DNA of 64,000 bases from Pseudomonadota bacterium (GTDB taxonomy: Bacteria; Desulfobacterota; Binatia; Binatales; Binataceae), in NCBI GenBank assembly GCA_021324855.1, contig JAJPIG010000022.1, forward strand, positions 185,777 through 249,776. Direction: 5' to 3'. The notes beneath the pieces are model-generated. The model had not been told where the DNA came from, did not search any database, and worked only from the letters and a program-made list of their open reading frames with translations. Shown piece by piece: positions 2,164 to 61,357 of this stretch; positions within the stretch are counted from its first letter, which is position 1; each line of letters opens with the position of its first letter. The position numbers were made by a program, and so were the translations under genes.

Positions 2164-5424
<3,261 letters not shown>

Positions 5425-5550
5425 GGCACTTTTAGCGCACGCTCGGCCATTGGTACCTTCACCGTTTCGAGGGTGTCAATTTTAGCCGCGTGCTTTAATC
5501 AACAGCTTCGGCGCCGAATTTTGAATTGAGTCAACGCAAAAATCTTATCG

Positions 5551-5673
5551 CTAACCCCGCTGGCGCGTGCGGCGCATCCGGCGCTTGCGCGCGCGGACCT
5601 GGGTCGGGCTGGTGCGGCGTTTCTTGGCGAGACGGCGGTTGCGCCGATTGCGCTGTCGTGAAGCTGCTTTCAT
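5551..5673 (-). CDS. Possible small, extremely basic protein (40 aa, MKAASRQRNRRNRRLAKKRRTSPTQVRARKRRMRRTRQRG). Uncertain.
   Basis: Starts at an ATG immediately after the dacC-like stop, with AGGTGG four nt upstream. The composition resembles small ribosomal or nucleic-acid-binding proteins. Could equally be a high-GC artefact. Confidence 0.25.
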   Translation of the reverse strand: MKAASRQRNRRNRRLAKKRRTSPTQVRARKRRMRRTRQRG

Positions 5674-6930
5674 CTAACCACCTGGCTGCTGCCGATAAAG
5701 CGGCGGCTTTGGATTGTTTCCCGCGGCCTCGTTGACGGTCGCCCCGTTGGCAGCGGGATCGCGACCGATGGTGCTGAGCGGGCAGATCGCCGGGACGTCA
5801 TCGAGCACGTCCTCCCCCGCCATCACCACCACCTGGCCGAGCGGCATCCCGGCTTCGACGTGACCGGCTATAACCGCGGGAATTTCATACTGAAGATGTA
5901 TATCGTGAACGCTATCCTTGCGCACCACCACGCTCACGGGATGCGCAACGACTGGATAGATCAGCGCCCCTGAATCGGTCCGCACGTCGACCGGCAGCGG
6001 CTGCCCGCCCTTCAGCACAGGCACGCGAGTGAAGTTGTCGAAGCCCCATTCGAGGAAACGTGCGGCCTGCGCAAAGCGCTGGGCGTTCGATGGAGCGCCG
6101 AGCACGACCGCGATCAACCGCATGTCGCCGCGCCGGGCGGTCGCGGTCAGGTTGAAGCCGGCGCGGAACGTGAAGCCGGTCTTGAGGCCATCGCAGCCCT
6201 CGAAATGACCAATCAGATGGTTGGTATTATGGAGCATCGCCACGCCGCCATCGAACGATGTTCTCTCCAGCCCCGACCAGCCGAGCAGGTCGGTATGATA
6301 GATGAGCTCACGGGCAAGCGTTGCGAGATCGCGGGCGCTCGTGAAGTCAACGTCGTGAGCGGGAGTGGGAGGTAGGCCGTCGACCGTCTGATATTCAGTC
6401 GCGGTCATCCCGAGCGCTCGCGCACGAAGGTTCATCAGACGGACCGTGTTTTCAACCGAACCGCCGACAGCCTCGGCCACCGCGACCGCGGCGTCATTTG
6501 CCGATCGAATCAGCGCGGCTTTCATCAACTCGCCGAGGGGATAGACCTGACCTTCGCGCAGCCCGAGGCGCGATCCTCCGGTGAACGCAGCGCGCGCCGA
6601 AATCACCACCGGCTGGCTCAGCCGGACGCGTCCGGCCTTGATCTGATCTTCAGCGACCAGCAGCAGCATCATTTTGGCCATCGAGGCCGGCGGCCATACG
6701 AGGTCCGCGTTTTCCTGATACAGAATCCGTCCCGAATCAGCATCCTCAACCAGCACCGCATGATAGAGCGGCGCGTTGCTCGCGGCCGCTCTGTGATGCG
6801 AACGATGGTGATGATGCGTGTGGGTTGAGCGCGATGCGAATACCGGCCGCGCCATGAACGGCGCGAGCGCGACCATCAGGGCCGCCGCGATACCACGATA
6901 GAAAATCAGCCGCCCATCCAAATCCGCCAC
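5674..6930 (-). CDS. dacC: D-alanyl-D-alanine carboxypeptidase (PBP5/6-like serine peptidase) with a His-rich tract after the signal peptide
   Basis: SxxK (SMAKMM), SxN (SAND) and KTG (GLKTGFT) motifs. Signal peptide. Unusual THTHHHHRSHHRAAAS segment near the mature N-terminus. Confidence 0.85.
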   Translation of the reverse strand: MADLDGRLIFYRGIAAALMVALAPFMARPVFASRSTHTHHHHRSHHRAAASNAPLYHAVLVEDADSGRILYQENADLVWPPASMAKMMLLLVAEDQIKAGRVRLSQPVVISARAAFTGGSRLGLREGQVYPLGELMKAALIRSANDAAVAVAEAVGGSVENTVRLMNLRARALGMTATEYQTVDGLPPTPAHDVDFTSARDLATLARELIYHTDLLGWSGLERTSFDGGVAMLHNTNHLIGHFEGCDGLKTGFTFRAGFNLTATARRGDMRLIAVVLGAPSNAQRFAQAARFLEWGFDNFTRVPVLKGGQPLPVDVRTDSGALIYPVVAHPVSVVVRKDSVHDIHLQYEIPAVIAGHVEAGMPLGQVVVMAGEDVLDDVPAICPLSTIGRDPAANGATVNEAAGNNPKPPLYRQQPGG

Positions 6931-54670: not shown

Positions 54671-56434
<1,764 letters not shown>

Positions 56435-56772
56435 GCCCTTACACGGTGCGTCCCGGCCGCATCAGGCGGCGGGGGCGAGATTGCCCCGCGCTGGTTTCGG
56501 GGCGAGCTCCATTCCACTACAATAGAGACGAATTTGGACGTCAAAGGCTACAATGCTTCCGAAGCTGCTCACGTTAGAGGCGCCTCGTACAGAAGTCAAT
56601 TTCTTCGTCTGTTCCAGGTACCTCACGATGAGTCCGTCGGCGTCCCCTCATCCGGACCCACAGGTCAACGTTCTAGTATAGCCTAAATTGCCGTCCGTTT
56701 TCTAATGGCTGGAACGACCGATTCGGGGCCCGCTCCCTGGTTCTCACAACTAAGATTAAGTTAACCATCCTG

Positions 56773-56785
56773 ATGCACGTTGTGC
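56773..56785. promoter_or_regulatory. Perfect palindrome TGCAC-GTT-GTGCA about 20 nt upstream of the exchanger-polB operon start. Putative operator.
   Basis: Seen directly in the sequence. Located in the 373-bp divergent rpoD / CaCA-polB intergenic region. Confidence 0.3.
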
Positions 56786-56807
56786 AGGACGGAGGCGGGA
56801 GGCTCTT

Positions 56808-57830
56808 TTGCTCGAACATTCGATTTTCCTGGTCCTTAGCTTCGCGCTTATCCTCGCTGGTTCGGAGCTTTTTACCAACGGCGTAGAATGGGCCGGCCAG
56901 CGGCTTAATATCGCCGAAGCTGCTGTAGGGAGCCTGCTGGCCGCCGTCGGCACCGCCCTTCCCGAAACATTTATCCCGCTGGTCGCGTTGATTATGGGCC
57001 GGACCGGCACCGATGCGCATAGCGCGGTCGGCGTCGGCGCGATTATTGGGGCGCCGCTGATGCTCTCGACGGTCGCCCTGTTCGTGATGGGTGTCGCTGG
57101 CTTTGCCTTCCGGGGTCGGCGCGGCCACGCGGCCCTCAGAGTATCGAGGGAAGACGCCCGACGTGACCTGGCTTTCTTTATGCCCATCCTGCTGGCATTG
57201 GTCCTGCTGGGCGTCGACCACCCAAGCCCCGTTTTGCGCTACGTCGCAGCCGGAATCGTGCTCCTGGCCTACGTTGCTTACAGCATTACGATGCTCCGAA
57301 TGGCCCGCAGCACCGACTCCATCGTGGAGCAGGGACTTCATCTCGAGCGGCTCGCGCGCGGCGACCCGCTCAATCCGCGCAATGCGATCACGGCCATCCA
57401 AGTGAGCACCGGTGTACTCGCAATCCTGTTCGGCGCGCGGATCTTCGTCGATCAGATCATCCTGTTTTCGGGGCATGCCGGCATGAGTCCCGGCGTTCTT
57501 TCGCTGATCCTGAGTCCGCTCGCGACGGAACTGCCCGAGAAATACAACTCGGTCATCTGGATACGCCAGCGCAAGGACCATCTCGCGCTCGCGAACATCA
57601 CCGGCGCTATGGCTTTTCAGTCCTGCATTCCGGTGGCGCTGGGCCTTATCTTCACACCCTGGCATCTTGCGCCCGCTGAGTTGATCGGCAGCGCGGTGGC
57701 GCTGGTCTCAGCGATGATCCTCTTTCTGAATCTCCACGATGGTATCCTGAGGTTCGCGAACCTGATGATGGGCGGGGCGGCCTATGCGCTGTTCATCGCG
57801 CTGCTCGCGTTAAATGGCCTTTTCCGATGA
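56808..57830 (+). CDS. Na+/Ca2+ exchanger family (CaCA, YrbG-like) membrane protein
   Basis: Alpha-1 and alpha-2 repeats GSELFTNGVE...GTALPE and SPLATELPE. 10 TM. TTG start with GGAGG upstream. Confidence 0.8.
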   Translation: MLEHSIFLVLSFALILAGSELFTNGVEWAGQRLNIAEAAVGSLLAAVGTALPETFIPLVALIMGRTGTDAHSAVGVGAIIGAPLMLSTVALFVMGVAGFAFRGRRGHAALRVSREDARRDLAFFMPILLALVLLGVDHPSPVLRYVAAGIVLLAYVAYSITMLRMARSTDSIVEQGLHLERLARGDPLNPRNAITAIQVSTGVLAILFGARIFVDQIILFSGHAGMSPGVLSLILSPLATELPEKYNSVIWIRQRKDHLALANITGAMAFQSCIPVALGLIFTPWHLAPAELIGSAVALVSAMILFLNLHDGILRFANLMMGGAAYALFIALLALNGLFR

Positions 57831-57848
57831 CGGTCGATAGCGTCGGCG

Positions 57849-60152
57849 ATGGATCGATATCAGCATATATCGAGCCAGTTTTATGGCAATCGGCTCCTCT
57901 TCGGCGACCCGAGTGAGGATTCGATAGTCGCGCTCGAAATCGCGTCGCCGACCGAGGTTGAAATCTTCCGCCGCCGCCATGGCGAGTTAAGCCGCGAACG
58001 CCGGCCATTGAGATTGTTTCTGCTGCTCGCCGATCGCGAGCTGATGAAAGGAACACGCATCCCCCACGAGACCGTCGAGATGGCGGGCGATTTCCGCTTC
58101 CGCTACCTCGTGAGTTTCGGTTCCACCGCCGGGCTGGAGAGCGCCAAGCGCCACCTCCGGAACGTTTCGGGGAAGGCTGCCAGCGCCGCCGATGCGCCAT
58201 ATTTCGTACTGAGCGACCCGATCGAACAGCACCTGATGCTCACCGGTTCAACTTTCTTCATCGGGCTCAGTTTCCAAGACCTGCGCCGGATGCAACTCGA
58301 TATCGAGACCTACACCAGCAGCGGTTTCGAGTTCGCCTCCGCCGGACGCGAAGGCGACCGCATCACGGCCATCGCGATCACCGACTCAACCGGTTACGAG
58401 CGCGTGCTCGACGGCCATAAGACGGACGAGCGGACGATGCTGGAAGAGCTGGTGCAAATTGTCAATGAGCAGGACCCCGACGTGATCGAAGGTCACAATC
58501 TCTTCCGCTCGGACCTCGAATATCTGGAACAGCGCGCGCGGCGGCACAAACTCAAGCTGGCGCTGGGCCGCGACGGCAGCGTGATGCGCGCGCGGGCTTC
58601 GCGGCTCCAGATCGCCGAGCGCACGATCGCCTACCGGCGTTACGAGATCTATGGCCGCTCGGTAATCGACACTTGGATCCTTGCGCAGTTCTATGACATC
58701 GCGAGCCGCGAGCTCGAAGGTTTCGGCTTACGCGAGCTGGCCGAACATTTCCGGATCGCGGGCCCCGATCGCGTCTATCTCGATCCCGCCCGCATGAGTC
58801 ATTACTTCGATCGCGAGCCTGAGCTGCTGATGCGGTCGGCGCTCGAAGACGCGCGCGAAGCGGGCGCGCTCGCTGCGCTGCTCGCGCCCAGTTACTTCAT
58901 TCAGGCACAGATTTTCCCATACTCGTTCCAGAATGTAGTGCTGCGCGGCAATGCGACGCGCATCGATGCCCTGCTGATACGGAACTACCTTGCCGCGCGC
59001 CATTCGATTCCCGCACCCGCCGAGCCCTCCGAGGTCGCCGGCGGATACACCGAGATGCGCCGCTGCGGCGTAGCGCGCGGCGTACTGCATTGCGATGTAA
59101 CGTCGCTTTATCCCTCGCTGATGCTCCAGTACGGGTATGCGCCGCAGAACGATCGGCTCGGCGTTTTCCTCAAGATGCTCGCTGATTTGCGCCGCTTTCG
59201 AATCGAGGCGAAGGCGGCCGCTGCCGAAACCAGCGGCGCCGAGCGCCACAATTTGGACGCGATGCAGCAGACCTTCAAAATCCTGATTAACTCGTTTTAT
59301 GGGTATCTCGGTTTCGCGCTCGGCCACTTCAACGATTTCATTGCAGCCAATAACGTCACGCGTCAGGGCCGCGATTTGATCCAGAAGGCGATCGGCGTCC
59401 TCGAAGGCGCCGGCGCGCAAGTGATCGAATGTGATACCGACGGGATCTATTTCGTTGCGCCTTTTGCATTCGAAGATGCGGGCGCGGCCGAGGCGCTGTT
59501 GGAAAAAGTCGCTGCGGCGATGCCTGAGGGAATCCGGCTCGAAATCGACGGGCGTTATCCGGCGATGTTCTCATACAAGATGAAGAATTACGTCCTGCTC
59601 GATGAAGACGGCACGACCACGATTCGCGGTTCGGGCCTGCGCTCGCGCGGGCTCGAACGCTTCCAGCGCCGTTTCATGGAGGATTTTTTCCATCGCTTGC
59701 TATCCGATCGGCGCGACGAAATTCCGGCTCTCTACGACGATTATCGCCGTCGGATCGAAAGTCACGAATTCAGTATCACTGACTTGATGAAGACCGAGAC
59801 CATCCAGGATTCGCTCGAGGTCTACCGTCAGAAAATCGCGGCGAAGCGCCGCAATCCCGCCGCCGCATACGAACTCGCGCTCAAGTCCCAGCGGCCGTTT
59901 CAGAGCGGCGATCAGATCTCGTACTACGTCACCGGCCGGGGCGCGCGCGTCAAGGTCAATGTAGCCGCGAAAATGGCATCCGAGTACGACCCCGCCAATC
60001 CCGACGAGAACGTTGAGTATTATCAGGCCAAGCTCGCGGATCTCTACGAAAAGTTCCGGCCGTTTGCCGACCGGCCGGGTCTGTTCCCCGCCGATGCTCT
60101 CGAGCGTGGCGAAGAACCGGCGCAGCCCGGAATTTTTGACGGCCAGAAATAG
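57849..60152 (+). CDS. polB: Family B DNA polymerase (DNA polymerase II-like, with 3'-5' exonuclease)
   Basis: Exo I LDIETYT. Exo II block DPDVIEGHNLFRSDLEYL, comparable to E. coli Pol II DPDVIIGWNVVQFDLRML. Motif A DVTSLYPS. Motif B KILINSFYGYLG. Motif C CDTDGIY. KxY variant YKMKNY. 767 aa. Confidence 0.88.
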   Translation: MDRYQHISSQFYGNRLLFGDPSEDSIVALEIASPTEVEIFRRRHGELSRERRPLRLFLLLADRELMKGTRIPHETVEMAGDFRFRYLVSFGSTAGLESAKRHLRNVSGKAASAADAPYFVLSDPIEQHLMLTGSTFFIGLSFQDLRRMQLDIETYTSSGFEFASAGREGDRITAIAITDSTGYERVLDGHKTDERTMLEELVQIVNEQDPDVIEGHNLFRSDLEYLEQRARRHKLKLALGRDGSVMRARASRLQIAERTIAYRRYEIYGRSVIDTWILAQFYDIASRELEGFGLRELAEHFRIAGPDRVYLDPARMSHYFDREPELLMRSALEDAREAGALAALLAPSYFIQAQIFPYSFQNVVLRGNATRIDALLIRNYLAARHSIPAPAEPSEVAGGYTEMRRCGVARGVLHCDVTSLYPSLMLQYGYAPQNDRLGVFLKMLADLRRFRIEAKAAAAETSGAERHNLDAMQQTFKILINSFYGYLGFALGHFNDFIAANNVTRQGRDLIQKAIGVLEGAGAQVIECDTDGIYFVAPFAFEDAGAAEALLEKVAAAMPEGIRLEIDGRYPAMFSYKMKNYVLLDEDGTTTIRGSGLRSRGLERFQRRFMEDFFHRLLSDRRDEIPALYDDYRRRIESHEFSITDLMKTETIQDSLEVYRQKIAAKRRNPAAAYELALKSQRPFQSGDQISYYVTGRGARVKVNVAAKMASEYDPANPDENVEYYQAKLADLYEKFRPFADRPGLFPADALERGEEPAQPGIFDGQK

Positions 60153-60391
60153 GCTCGATGGCCTCCAAGGCGTTGTCTTTGATCGAAATTGCCTAGAATC
60201 GACCTAGTGCGCAATTCCTTACCGGGATTTTCTCGACCGGGAAAATCCAAAAAACGTAAATTTCGGATAAAAGCTGGTGACGTAGCATCAATTCATGCTA
60301 TAAAAATGGACATACTGTGTAAAAGTGATATAAAATAGTAAAAAGATGACTGTAATTTTTTACAGGGATATCTGAAAAAGGGTGGGATAAT
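60153..60391 (+). promoter_or_regulatory. Very AT-rich promoter island upstream of the beta-helix protein gene
   Basis: Hand-counted GC about 22-33% in two 60-nt samples. Contains GTGACG-16nt-TATAAA and an extended -10 TGATATAAA. Inverted repeat GGATTTTC/GAAAATCC. Strong SD AAGGGTGGG five nt before the ATG. Confidence 0.45.
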
Positions 60392-61357
60392 ATGGCAGGC
60401 ATACAAAGAAAATTGTGGACCGGAAGCTTGATTGTCGCGCTGCTGCTGGCGGCCTCGGTTTCGGGCTTTGCGCAGGTCGGATTGGGCGATTGCACGAAAA
60501 AACCCATCTCAATAAAGAGTTCCGGCAGCTATGTCCTGAAGCACAATGTCGCCTCGAAGAGCGGGAAGGACTGCATTGACGTTCTTGCGTCCAACGTCAC
60601 CATCGACCTGAACGGATTCGCCATTCTCTCGGGACTCGTGGGAATCAATGCTGCCAACAAGACTTACATTTCGATTCGTAACGGCATGGTCACCGGAATG
60701 ACCGGGCCGGGCATAGTTGTAGGCGGCTACAGCACGGTCCAGGGAGTGCATTCGAACCTCAACGCCGGTGACGGCATCTTATGCGAGGGTGACGGATGTG
60801 TGATTTCGGACAACTCGGCTGACGGGAATCAAAATAACGGGATCGAGGTGACCGGCAACTACGCCCGGATCTCGGGCAACACGGCCAATGGCAACACTAA
60901 CAGCGGGATCCTCGCCGGCTCGGGCTCTTCGGGCCAGTCCAATATCATCACCGGGAATACCGCCAATGGGAATGCCAGCAACGCCGGCATCCAGTGCGGT
61001 TACAACGCCATCGTCAACGGCAACACGACCGATGCGAACGGCGGTGACGGCATCAACTGCGGTACCGGGTCGACAATCGATGGCAATATCGCGTCGCTCA
61101 ATCATGGTTCCGGAATAAGTACCGGTGATAACGTCCGCATCGGGGCCAACGTGCTGAACGACAACAGCAGCGACGGCATCAGGACGGGCACGGCGCTGGT
61201 CCAGGGTAACGAGACCAACGGCAACGGCGGTTATGGACTCAATACCAGCAGCGTTGGTACGGGATTCACCGAGAACGTTTTCAACAGCGACTCGAGCGGC
61301 GCGGTCCGCAACGGTGTCAGCCTCGGAAACAACGTGTGCGACGGCACGAAATGCTAG
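60392..61357 (+). CDS. Secreted right-handed parallel beta-helix repeat protein (NosD/CASH-like fold)
   Basis: Signal peptide. About ten tandem repeats of roughly 22 aa of the form GN.A.GN...GI (GNTANGNTNSGILAG, GNTANGNASNAGIQCG, GNTTDANGGDGINCG...). C-terminal Cys pair. Confidence 0.6.
   Translation: MAGIQRKLWTGSLIVALLLAASVSGFAQVGLGDCTKKPISIKSSGSYVLKHNVASKSGKDCIDVLASNVTIDLNGFAILSGLVGINAANKTYISIRNGMVTGMTGPGIVVGGYSTVQGVHSNLNAGDGILCEGDGCVISDNSADGNQNNGIEVTGNYARISGNTANGNTNSGILAGSGSSGQSNIITGNTANGNASNAGIQCGYNAIVNGNTTDANGGDGINCGTGSTIDGNIASLNHGSGISTGDNVRIGANVLNDNSSDGIRTGTALVQGNETNGNGGYGLNTSSVGTGFTENVFNSDSSGAVRNGVSLGNNVCDGTKC

Follow-up and report, generated by a model that had tools for sequence, protein, structure and literature searches.

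A group G3 family-B DNA polymerase gene behind a cation exchanger gene in Candidatus Binataceae: inherited gene order, putative read-through and a proofreading site that is probably weakened

In a stretch of 64,000 nucleotides (nt) from a Candidatus Binataceae soil bacterium, referred to below as the window, a gene for a family-B DNA polymerase (polB) lies directly behind a gene for a cation/Ca2+ exchanger of the CaCA family, and this pair diverges from rpoD, the gene of the primary sigma-70 factor. The locus raises the question whether ion exchange and DNA synthesis are joined here in a regulated unit, or whether the two genes share no more than an inherited gene order. A first-pass annotation, made from the letters alone, had read the polymerase as DNA polymerase II, the pair as an unusual operon, and a palindrome in front of it as a candidate operator.

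The analysis reported here points to inherited order. The exchanger gene is followed by the gene of an accessory polymerase of group G3, the repeat in front of the pair appears to have arisen by chance, polB is likely expressed by read-through, and its exonuclease site seems to be under relaxed constraint; this reading as a whole is held with good, though not complete, confidence. The polymerase is of a known but uncharacterised kind with a conserved chromosomal position beside rpoD in Binataceae, and it is coupled to the exchanger gene through an accident of gene order in this lineage, without sign of a functional link. What the first-pass annotation observed is largely correct, and its interpretation is correct in part.

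Identity of the polymerase

The gene layout was derived from a six-frame list of open reading frames (ORFs) together with the raw sequence, and gene calling done independently, on a public contig that encodes the identical protein, arrives at these boundaries as well. The exchanger ORF (56808-57830, plus strand) has a TTG start and encodes 340 amino acids (aa), and the polB ORF (57849-60152, plus strand) has an ATG start and encodes 767 aa; polB begins exactly 18 nt after the stop of the CaCA-family gene on the same strand, as had been described. The polymerase features are listed below, with conservation counts from an alignment of 64 full-length relatives of many phyla.

57849..60152, plus strand: polB, group G3 family-B DNA polymerase, 767 aa (Pfam, NCBIfam, BLAST, motifs)
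59094..59117, plus strand: motif A, DVTSLYPS (D416 and S419-S423 invariant in 64/64)
59277..59303, plus strand: motif B, KILINSFYG (K477, N481, Y484 and G485 invariant in 64/64)
59427..59444, plus strand: motif C, ECDTDG, with Glu527 as the G3/Pol-epsilon-N mark (E527, D529, T530, D531 and G532 invariant in 64/64)
60123..60137, plus strand: C-terminal QPGIF, candidate beta-clamp-binding motif of the QxxLF type (conservation of Q759)

The protein matches the Pfam profiles DNA_pol_B (7e-21, 75.0 bits) and DNA_pol_B_exo1 (6.9e-12, 45.7 bits), both above the gathering cut-off of 23. The family-B assignment of the first-pass annotation is upheld to the extent that the protein is a primer-dependent PolB with intact polymerase motifs, including the KxY motif YKMKNY, which like motifs A, B and C is invariant in all 64 relatives, but the protein is not of the Pol II type. 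Against the NCBIfam Pol II equivalogs NF004420, NF004421 and NF004422 it scores 64.7, 104.7 and 81.4 bits, where the cut-offs are 1435, 570 and 1103, respectively. In a direct comparison with a small set of four outside sequences, BLASTP gave 396 bits to the G3 PolB of a Salinibacter phage versus 92 bits to Salmonella Pol II. Motif C reads IECDTDG in the window, IEADTDG in the Salinibacter phage, IYGDTDS in Salmonella Pol II and IYSDTDG in KOD polymerase, so that the motif C glutamate is common to the window protein and the Salinibacter phage protein.

The viral relatives have the same tendency. A tblastn search with the protein against 50,697 phage records returned 24 matches, of which 10 are from Salinibacter phages (35% identity over 86% of the length, E ~1e-99), 7 from phages of Nostoc, Anabaena and Dolichospermum, 3 from crAss-like phages (two uncultured, one crAssphage) and 1 from an unclassified Bacteriophage sp. 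contig; the other 3 are Salmonella or Escherichia records, namely one chromosomal contig annotated as DNA polymerase II and two short unannotated records. Kazlauskas et al. 2020 (NAR 48:10142; PMC7544198) describe G3 as a bacterial PolB group of the EpsilonN-like clade. Its members are most clearly united by a motif C glutamate, a conserved synapomorphy; from viruses it includes the PolBs of Salinibacter and Nostoc phages only, and it clusters with the polymerases of crAss-like phages. Because of the motif C glutamate, the phage relatives, the BLASTP ranking and the missed Pol II cut-offs, the window polymerase is, as judged from its sequence, a member of group G3 (Pol-epsilon-N-like) and not an orthologue of Pol II (G1), and the earlier label is withdrawn. 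Two points weigh against this placement: it is drawn from the motif C glutamate, similarity ranking and viral relatives and not from a full PolB phylogeny, and the Nostoc phage PolB, which is counted as G3 in PMC7544198, carries a serine at the position of the motif C glutamate.

In other respects, too, the protein resembles published G3 polymerases. It has the canonical architecture of N-terminal, exonuclease and polymerase domains and, two positions ahead of the motif C DTD, the glutamate (IE-x-DTDG); among viruses its nearest homologues are the PolBs of Salinibacter and Nostoc phages, followed by crAss-like phages; its relatives are scattered over many bacterial phyla; and it has a C-terminal QxxLF-type motif. 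A difference is that the G3 enzymes are described with conserved exonuclease sites, whereas the Binataceae sublineage of the window has lost the Exo III tyrosine and in part also the Exo I aspartate. No mention of Binatota was noticed in the consulted text of the published surveys.

With E. coli Pol II the protein has in common the family-B fold, a DEDD-type exonuclease, the three polymerase motifs A, B and C, a pentapeptide at the C-terminus that is a candidate for clamp binding and, putatively, a non-essential accessory role beside Pol III; it differs in sequence, with ~26% identity over half of the length (92 bits, Salmonella Pol II being the protein compared), and in that E. coli Pol II is encoded by a stand-alone SOS gene, whereas evidence of LexA control was not found for the window gene. 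Among solved structures, the PolBs of Thermococcus and Pyrococcus rank at the top (2e-33, collinear over residues 143-726), ahead of E. coli Pol II (1.8e-14). The exonuclease and polymerase motifs of the archaeal PolB3 enzymes (Thermococcus KOD, 9 degrees N, Pfu) align one to one with those of the window protein; they are, however, archaeal replicative or repair enzymes, they are placed in the B1-3-like and not the EpsilonN-like clade in the classification of PMC7544198, and they have a tyrosine and not a glutamate in motif C.

Primer-independent (piPolB) and protein-primed PolBs were considered as well and are ruled out by the length of 767 aa, the N-terminal region of ~140 aa preceding the exonuclease domain, the collinearity with KOD polymerase, and the presence of both motif C aspartates. 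On the choice left by the first-pass annotation between a chromosomal polymerase and a piPolB or protein-primed enzyme, context and architecture both speak for the chromosomal type.

The QPGIF motif ends 4 residues before the C-terminus, and Q759 is found in 48 of the 49 relatives that have a residue there, in the pattern Q-x-x-[LMI]-F; a clamp-binding motif is reported for both G1 and G3 in Timinskas et al. 2026 (PMC12926913), where G3 is also described as experimentally uncharacterised. The window polymerase would most likely be a clamp-tethered, DNA- or RNA-primed accessory enzyme for repair or gap filling, a role that we infer because the G3 enzymes are uncharacterised. In public records, proteins of this one clade carry clashing labels, including 'DNA polymerase I', 'DNA polymerase, archaea type', 'DNA polymerase II', 'DNA polymerase elongation subunit (family B)' and '3'-5' exonuclease', none of which names G3. 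Such automatic labels mask an uncharacterised group that is abundant in uncultivated soil phyla.

The exchanger gene and the history of the gene order

The features upstream of polB are the following.

56808..57830, plus strand: CaCA-family cation/Ca2+ exchanger gene, 340 aa (Pfam Na_Ca_ex)
56949-56966, plus strand: alpha-repeat signature GTALPE, from residue 48 (motif location)
57522-57539, plus strand: alpha-repeat signature ATELPE, from residue 239 (motif location)
56797..56802, plus strand: Shine-Dalgarno-like GGGAGG, 5 nt before the TTG start of the exchanger gene (read from the sequence)
54671..56434, minus strand: rpoD, primary sigma-70 factor, 587 aa (NF004208 and Pfam)
56435..56807, no strand: divergent intergenic region of 373 bp between rpoD and the exchanger gene (alignment with L001-L003)

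The exchanger protein matches Pfam Na_Ca_ex (PF01699; 1.9e-22) in two stretches, and with these two repeats and its G(T/S)xLPE-type signatures it is a member of the CaCA superfamily. Its top match among solved structures is NCX_Mj (3e-08, aligned over both halves). It has the two Na_Ca_ex repeats, the GT-x-LPE-type signatures and the size of ~300-340 aa in common with exchangers of the NCX_Mj/YrbG type, but the similarity is remote, as shown by the 3e-08 to NCX_Mj and by scores under the TIGR00367 and YrbG cut-offs. The divergently oriented rpoD scores 659.5 bits against NF004208 (cut-off 555), and Pfam recovers all of its sigma-70 regions; the 373-bp divergent region shared with rpoD was confirmed as previously described.

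Relatives of the polymerase were collected in a scan of one genome per GTDB species, which yielded 535 confirmed relatives, and the best 80 of these 535 were used for the analysis of loci. They include Binataceae, other Binatia, Methylomirabilota/Rokubacteria, anammox Planctomycetota, Verrucomicrobiota including Methylacidiphilum, Chloroflexota, Eisenbacteria, Acidimicrobiia and others, with identities ranging from 47 to 87%. The nearest proteins (68-100% identity) stem from soil and peat metagenomes and from metagenome-assembled genomes (MAGs) labelled Candidatus Binataceae, and all retrieved relatives are MAGs or metagenome contigs, with no cultured Binataceae among them. Neighbours were determined by tblastn of the exchanger and RpoD proteins of the window against the 80 loci; the three closest species representatives, L001-L003, have 75-87% protein identity.

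Of the 80 loci, 21 have an exchanger gene directly 5' of polB, and every one of these belongs to Binataceae; among the non-Binataceae loci of the 80, none has a CaCA neighbour beside its G3 polB. Moreover, the adjacency is missing in at least 14 Binataceae loci. The order rpoD/CaCA/polB is the commonest one in Binataceae, and rpoD divergently adjoins either the exchanger gene or polB in 24 Binataceae loci. In a neighbour-joining (NJ) tree the full order is already present in the earliest-branching member (L022), and both the basal and the majority of the remaining Binataceae branches have it, apart from several losses of the exchanger gene or relocations of polB. For example, the exchanger gene is missing and rpoD faces polB in L004, L006, L009, L018 and L030, polB has neither gene upstream in the flank in L010, L013, L021, L025, L032 and L077, and the closest rpoD match of L023 lies ~6 kb 3' of polB. 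Additional DNA is present between rpoD and the exchanger gene in L012, L016, L020 and L028.

In other phyla, polB neighbours encode SDR, radical SAM, M20 peptidase, MscS channel, PAC2, GAF/HD and thioesterase proteins, often on the opposite strand, and clustering of the ORFs of the 80 loci gave no conserved partner of G3 polB across phyla, only lineage-specific neighbours of unrelated functions. Since the pairing is confined to Binataceae, is repeatedly broken, and is replaced by unrelated neighbours in other phyla, the rpoD/CaCA/polB order is an inherited Binataceae synteny with fluid membership and not a functional module. The first-pass view of exchanger and polymerase as a functional unit is not borne out, on account of this restricted and broken distribution and of a promoter-like element of its own in front of polB in most members. 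The claim in its original form carries little weight: the data reveal neither a new regulatory system nor a link between ion exchange and DNA synthesis.

Several of the loci have features of their own. In two Verrucomicrobiota of Methylacidiphilum (L064, L066), the gene downstream of polB, which shares 4 nt with it, encodes a mechanosensitive channel of the MscS type that carries a cyclic-nucleotide-binding domain. Here, too, polB adjoins a membrane protein gene, but the case is unrelated to the exchanger pairing and probably a coincidence. The insert between rpoD and the exchanger gene in L012 (2283-4920; similar in L028) measures ~2.6 kb and contains an ORF (GLEPATSAIP...) that resembles read-through of a tRNA gene, and it may be a tRNA-associated integrated element. 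The spacer between the exchanger gene and polB ranges from -4 to 133 nt, with outliers of 402 nt (L041) and 1241 nt (L001). The latter locus (84% identity) has an ORF of 268 aa at 4871-5677 between the two genes, without Pfam match; a hydrophobic N-terminal stretch suggests that its product may be a lipoprotein or secreted protein. In L016 (5868-6000) and L019 (1306-1427) the spacer contains a long, strong hairpin with ATCCACAGATT...AATCTGTGGAT arms and a GC-rich core, predicted at ~-72 kcal/mol for the spacer with its flanks; this hairpin may be either a repeat element or a terminator by which the genes are uncoupled.

The surroundings are those of ordinary core chromosomal DNA of a Candidatus Binataceae bacterium. 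The window also encodes CTP synthase (pyrG), NADH dehydrogenase subunits L, M and N (nuoLMN), GroEL, DegP, PBP1, the Pol III delta' subunit (holB), MetRS (metG) and MacB/HlyD, besides rpoD, and polB has a GC content of 0.60-0.62, equal to that of rpoD and without compositional break. An origin from a mobile element (piPolB, casposon or prophage) is ruled out by this composition, the housekeeping context and the family-wide synteny. Downstream of polB, the GC content drops to ~0.53 in 60153-60391; this 239-nt spacer is followed by a gene for a beta-helix protein (60392-61357), which is preceded by the best plus-strand promoter-like site of the region (60307-60336, TGGACA-18-TAAAAT, 10/12 matches). 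The beta-helix gene and the next gene (646 aa, without confident family) resemble genes for secreted proteins. In two close relatives (L086, 6309-7211; L087, 3902-4807), a gene for polyphosphate kinase 2 (PPK2) lies 4-15 nt 3' of polB on the same strand.

Inverted repeat, promoter-like elements and the junction

Two short features enter into the question of how the pair is expressed.

56774..56786, no strand: inverted repeat TGCAC-GTT-GTGCA (TGCACGTTGTGCA), 22-34 nt 5' of the exchanger start (sequence)
57831..57848, plus strand: 18-nt gap between the exchanger gene and polB, CGGTCGATAGCGTCGGCG (no promoter- or terminator-like site, no clear Shine-Dalgarno)

The first-pass annotation had placed a perfect palindrome at 56773-56785 and offered it as an operator. 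The sequence TGCACGTTGTGCA is indeed present, but one base to the right (56774-56786), and it is not a perfect palindrome: its 5-bp arms (TGCAC/GTGCA) enclose a non-symmetric 3-nt spacer. Repeats with 5-bp arms and spacers of 0-8 nt occur 5 times in the 373-bp region versus 3.45 +/- 2.3 expected under a first-order Markov model, and the chance of at least one such repeat in the last 60 nt is 0.30. At the homologous site of the three closest representatives dyad symmetry is absent, with TGCCGAACCGTGC in L001 and L002 and the unrelated CAGCCCCTGGATG in L003. The search for recurrences of TGCAC-N3-GTGCA, by which the first-pass annotation had wished to look for a damage-response regulon, returned no second copy in the 64-kb window (spacers 0-8) or in 887 kb of related loci, and alignments of the relatives contain no conserved palindrome upstream of polB or the exchanger gene.

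These results bear on the explanation that polB is a damage-inducible Pol II orthologue in an exchanger-polB operon, controlled by a LexA-like or other repressor bound at TGCACGTTGTGCA. The shared strand and the 18-nt gap fit such an operon, the repeat sits between a conserved upstream block and the Shine-Dalgarno of the exchanger gene, and E. coli polB is LexA-regulated, as cited in PMC12926913. Nevertheless, the explanation is scarcely credible, as the protein is not a Pol II orthologue and the repeat, with arms of 5 bp only, is no more than chance would give, lacks conservation in L001-L003 and does not recur; the window, moreover, has no lexA, recA or uvrA for comparison. The 13-nt inverted repeat is most likely a chance feature, and the operator proposal is abandoned for a chance-level repeat that is not conserved at 75-87% protein identity and has no second copy. 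A possible link between TGCACAAC, the reverse complement of the repeat, and the conserved TGCACAAT of the polB element described below was dismissed as coincidence: it would face rpoD, a -35 partner is missing, and L001-L003 do not share it.

Conservation in the 373-bp region is found elsewhere. In the alignment with L001-L003 the blocks TAGTATAGCC, AAGTCAA, GGACCC and TAACCA are kept, as is the GG-GGAG in front of the exchanger gene. TAGTATAGCC is the reverse complement of a minus-strand -10-like hexamer, TATACT, that faces rpoD. It belongs to a promoter-like site TAGAAA-18-TATACT on the minus strand (56704-56675), of which the -10 within TAGTATAGCC is kept in L001-L003, and which would give rpoD a leader of ~240 nt with several conserved blocks. 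Rfam returned 0 families in the intergenic region at a permissive threshold and 0 in the whole window at the gathering threshold; an explanation by a riboswitch or other leader RNA is without support from this search.

We know of no promoter data for Binataceae. Within 130 nt upstream of polB in the Binataceae loci a pattern recurs, consisting of TTG(T/A)(G/C)x, 17-18 nt and CA(C/G/A)AAT, which ends 8-27 nt before the polB start. Of 36 Binataceae loci, 20 have it in the strict form TTGNNN-N17/18-CANAAT no more than 110 nt in front of polB, against a background of 30 matches in 881,714 nt on both strands, those 20 included. The element occurs in CaCA-polB spacers of 52-120 nt, in loci in which rpoD faces polB, and in loci with relocated polB; examples among L004-L041 are L009 (5940-5982), L012 (5955-5985) and L010 (5950-5980). 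It is a candidate sigma-70-like promoter of polB, as suggested by its resemblance to such promoters. This identification is weakened by two considerations: the element is called a promoter by resemblance only and could be a binding site of a regulator, and as a promoter it would imply a very short leader of ~1-20 nt, or none. A palindrome that might have been a LexA-type box, CGCGT-N6-ACGCG, was noted in the element and set aside, as it is present only in one closely related group (L008-L014). The comparison across the family thus yields a candidate native polB promoter element for Binataceae.

The element was not found in the window (57740-57848), in L001-L003 or in L017. In the sublineage of the window the gap between the genes is short, with 18 nt in the window, 21 in L002, 14 in L003, 15 in L086, 21 in L087 and 21 in L088, and the gap sequence GCGGTCGAT(A/G)... 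is kept by L002, L087 and L088, whereas L086 (GCGGCCGATGG...) and L003 have diverged from it. No plus-strand promoter-like site was found in 56435-57848, even with a relaxed pattern, and no terminator-like site at the junction, where the gap is too short for a hairpin and the fold is unremarkable (-20.7 kcal/mol for 79 nt). The sole plus-strand terminator-like match lies inside the exchanger gene (57629-57643), and the scan gave 3 matches in total versus 4.4 in shuffled sequence.

Because of the short gap, the lack of recognised promoter and terminator sites, and the preservation of the gap in six members of the sublineage, co-transcription of polB with the exchanger gene by bicistronic read-through is probable in this genome, where it would be specific to the sublineage and incidental. 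In this course of events the sublineage would have lost the polB element and reduced the gap to 14-21 nt, and polB would be read from the promoter of the exchanger gene. The co-transcription proposed by the first-pass annotation is retained in this sense, for an 18-nt gap in which neither terminator nor promoter was found, but not as an operon kept beyond Binataceae. Three points count against read-through. It is deduced from spacing and the absence of recognisable signals, a polB promoter inside the 3' end of the exchanger coding sequence is possible, and no consensus promoter was found on the plus strand for the exchanger gene either, so that the scan may be insensitive here.

The latter points lead to the alternative that polB is driven independently by a promoter in the 3' end of the exchanger gene, the short gap reflecting genome compaction and the two genes not being co-expressed. 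Independent expression would be the norm of the family, given the promoter-like element of most Binataceae polB genes, and the scan that missed the exchanger promoter is of doubtful sensitivity; a TTAAAT hexamer, moreover, lies within the exchanger gene 39 nt before the polB ATG. This hexamer, however, has no TTG -35 partner at 16-19 nt and is not found in L002, L087 or L088, the relaxed search gave no match in 56435-57848, and the CANAAT element of the family is absent in the window. The gap of 14-21 nt, with its conserved GCGGTCGAT and without clear Shine-Dalgarno, fits read-through or translational coupling better. An independent promoter is considered unlikely, and read-through from the exchanger gene is preferred.

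Decay of the proofreading site

The polymerase site is invariant, and the variation of this protein is found in the exonuclease site.

58299..58307, plus strand: Exo I, D151-I-E153, intact in the window (alignment)
58497..58514, plus strand: Exo II, NLFRSD, with N217 and D222 kept and Ser221 in place of an aromatic residue (Phe in 62/64 relatives)
58836..58850, plus strand: Exo III, SALED, with Ser330 in place of tyrosine and D334 kept (alignment)

The first-pass annotation had credited the protein with every PolB catalytic signature. This is accurate for DIE(T), DVTSLYPS, KILINSFYG and ECDTDG, and inaccurate for Exo III, where tyrosine has been replaced by serine, and for Exo II, where serine has replaced the aromatic residue. 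The column of Ser330 corresponds to Y311 of KOD polymerase and holds tyrosine in the Salinibacter phage PolB and in Salmonella Pol II as well. Tyrosine is found in this column in 53 of the 64 relatives, and the full DEDDy set in 101 of the 120 closest homologues. In the sublineage of the window, which comprises 13 proteins with 74-100% identity, the Exo III tyrosine is gone in 13/13, replaced by S, A or H, and the Exo I aspartate is gone in 3, D151 being changed to K, A or R in close relatives (L001/P0009, P0008, L003/P0012). The replacement F221S occurs in the species group of the window.

The tyrosine of DEDDy exonucleases serves to position the attacking water; an enzyme that lacks it is markedly less active, although not necessarily inactive. 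Because the Exo III tyrosine has been lost, proofreading is likely weakened in the sublineage of the window. Set against this is the presence of all four exonuclease carboxylates (D151, E153, D222, D334) in the window PolB, with which proofreading may still work. The loss is not confined to one branch, as the NJ tree shows independent losses of exonuclease residues on at least four further Binataceae branches (L018, the L021/23/25/32 group, L027 and L077); altogether, losses are seen in P0001-P0013, L001, L003, L018, L021, L023, L025, L027, L032 and L077. This pattern suggests that the exonuclease site is under relaxed constraint, with drift toward a proofreading-impaired polymerase.

General decay would be another way to read these losses, with polB of the sublineage on its way to a pseudogene or relic. 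To this the absence of the Exo III tyrosine in 13/13, of the Exo I aspartate in 3 and of the promoter-like element could be attributed, together with F221S. Such a relic is very unlikely, since the frame is intact and the polymerase site invariant: the proteins of all members have 767-770 aa and are 74-96% identical from species to species, and no change is seen in motifs A, B and C, in KxY or in the G3 glutamate. Decay is confined to the exonuclease, as it is in the functional, proofreading-dead PolB2/G2 enzymes in their account in PMC12926913. With these exonuclease-dead translesion enzymes the window polymerase has in common the trend of losing exonuclease residues while the polymerase site is kept. 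It differs in that G2, according to PMC7544198, is wholly without Exo III and has a single aspartate in motif C, whereas the window PolB keeps both motif C aspartates and the four exonuclease carboxylates; furthermore, no mutasome partner genes adjoin the window polB.

Relaxed constraint on the exonuclease of an otherwise intact polymerase is the preferred reading. A more far-reaching proposal is that in one sublineage a G3 polymerase has been remodelled doubly, into an error-tolerant enzyme and into one tied to an upstream transporter gene, in view of the Exo III tyrosine lost in every member, the Exo I aspartate lost in several independently and the promoter-like element lost from the gene itself; this proposal is put forward tentatively and is more doubtful than probable.

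The locus is of modest interest for the study of G3, through the candidate promoter element of polB and through the exonuclease-site decay that recurs in the family. If the double remodelling were true, then Binataceae, in which at least four further branches have independently lost exonuclease residues, would provide a natural series from a high-fidelity PolB to a translesion-type enzyme, as is thought for PolB2/G2. The repeated decay of the proofreading site within a single family offers a tractable case for asking what function the G3 polymerases have.

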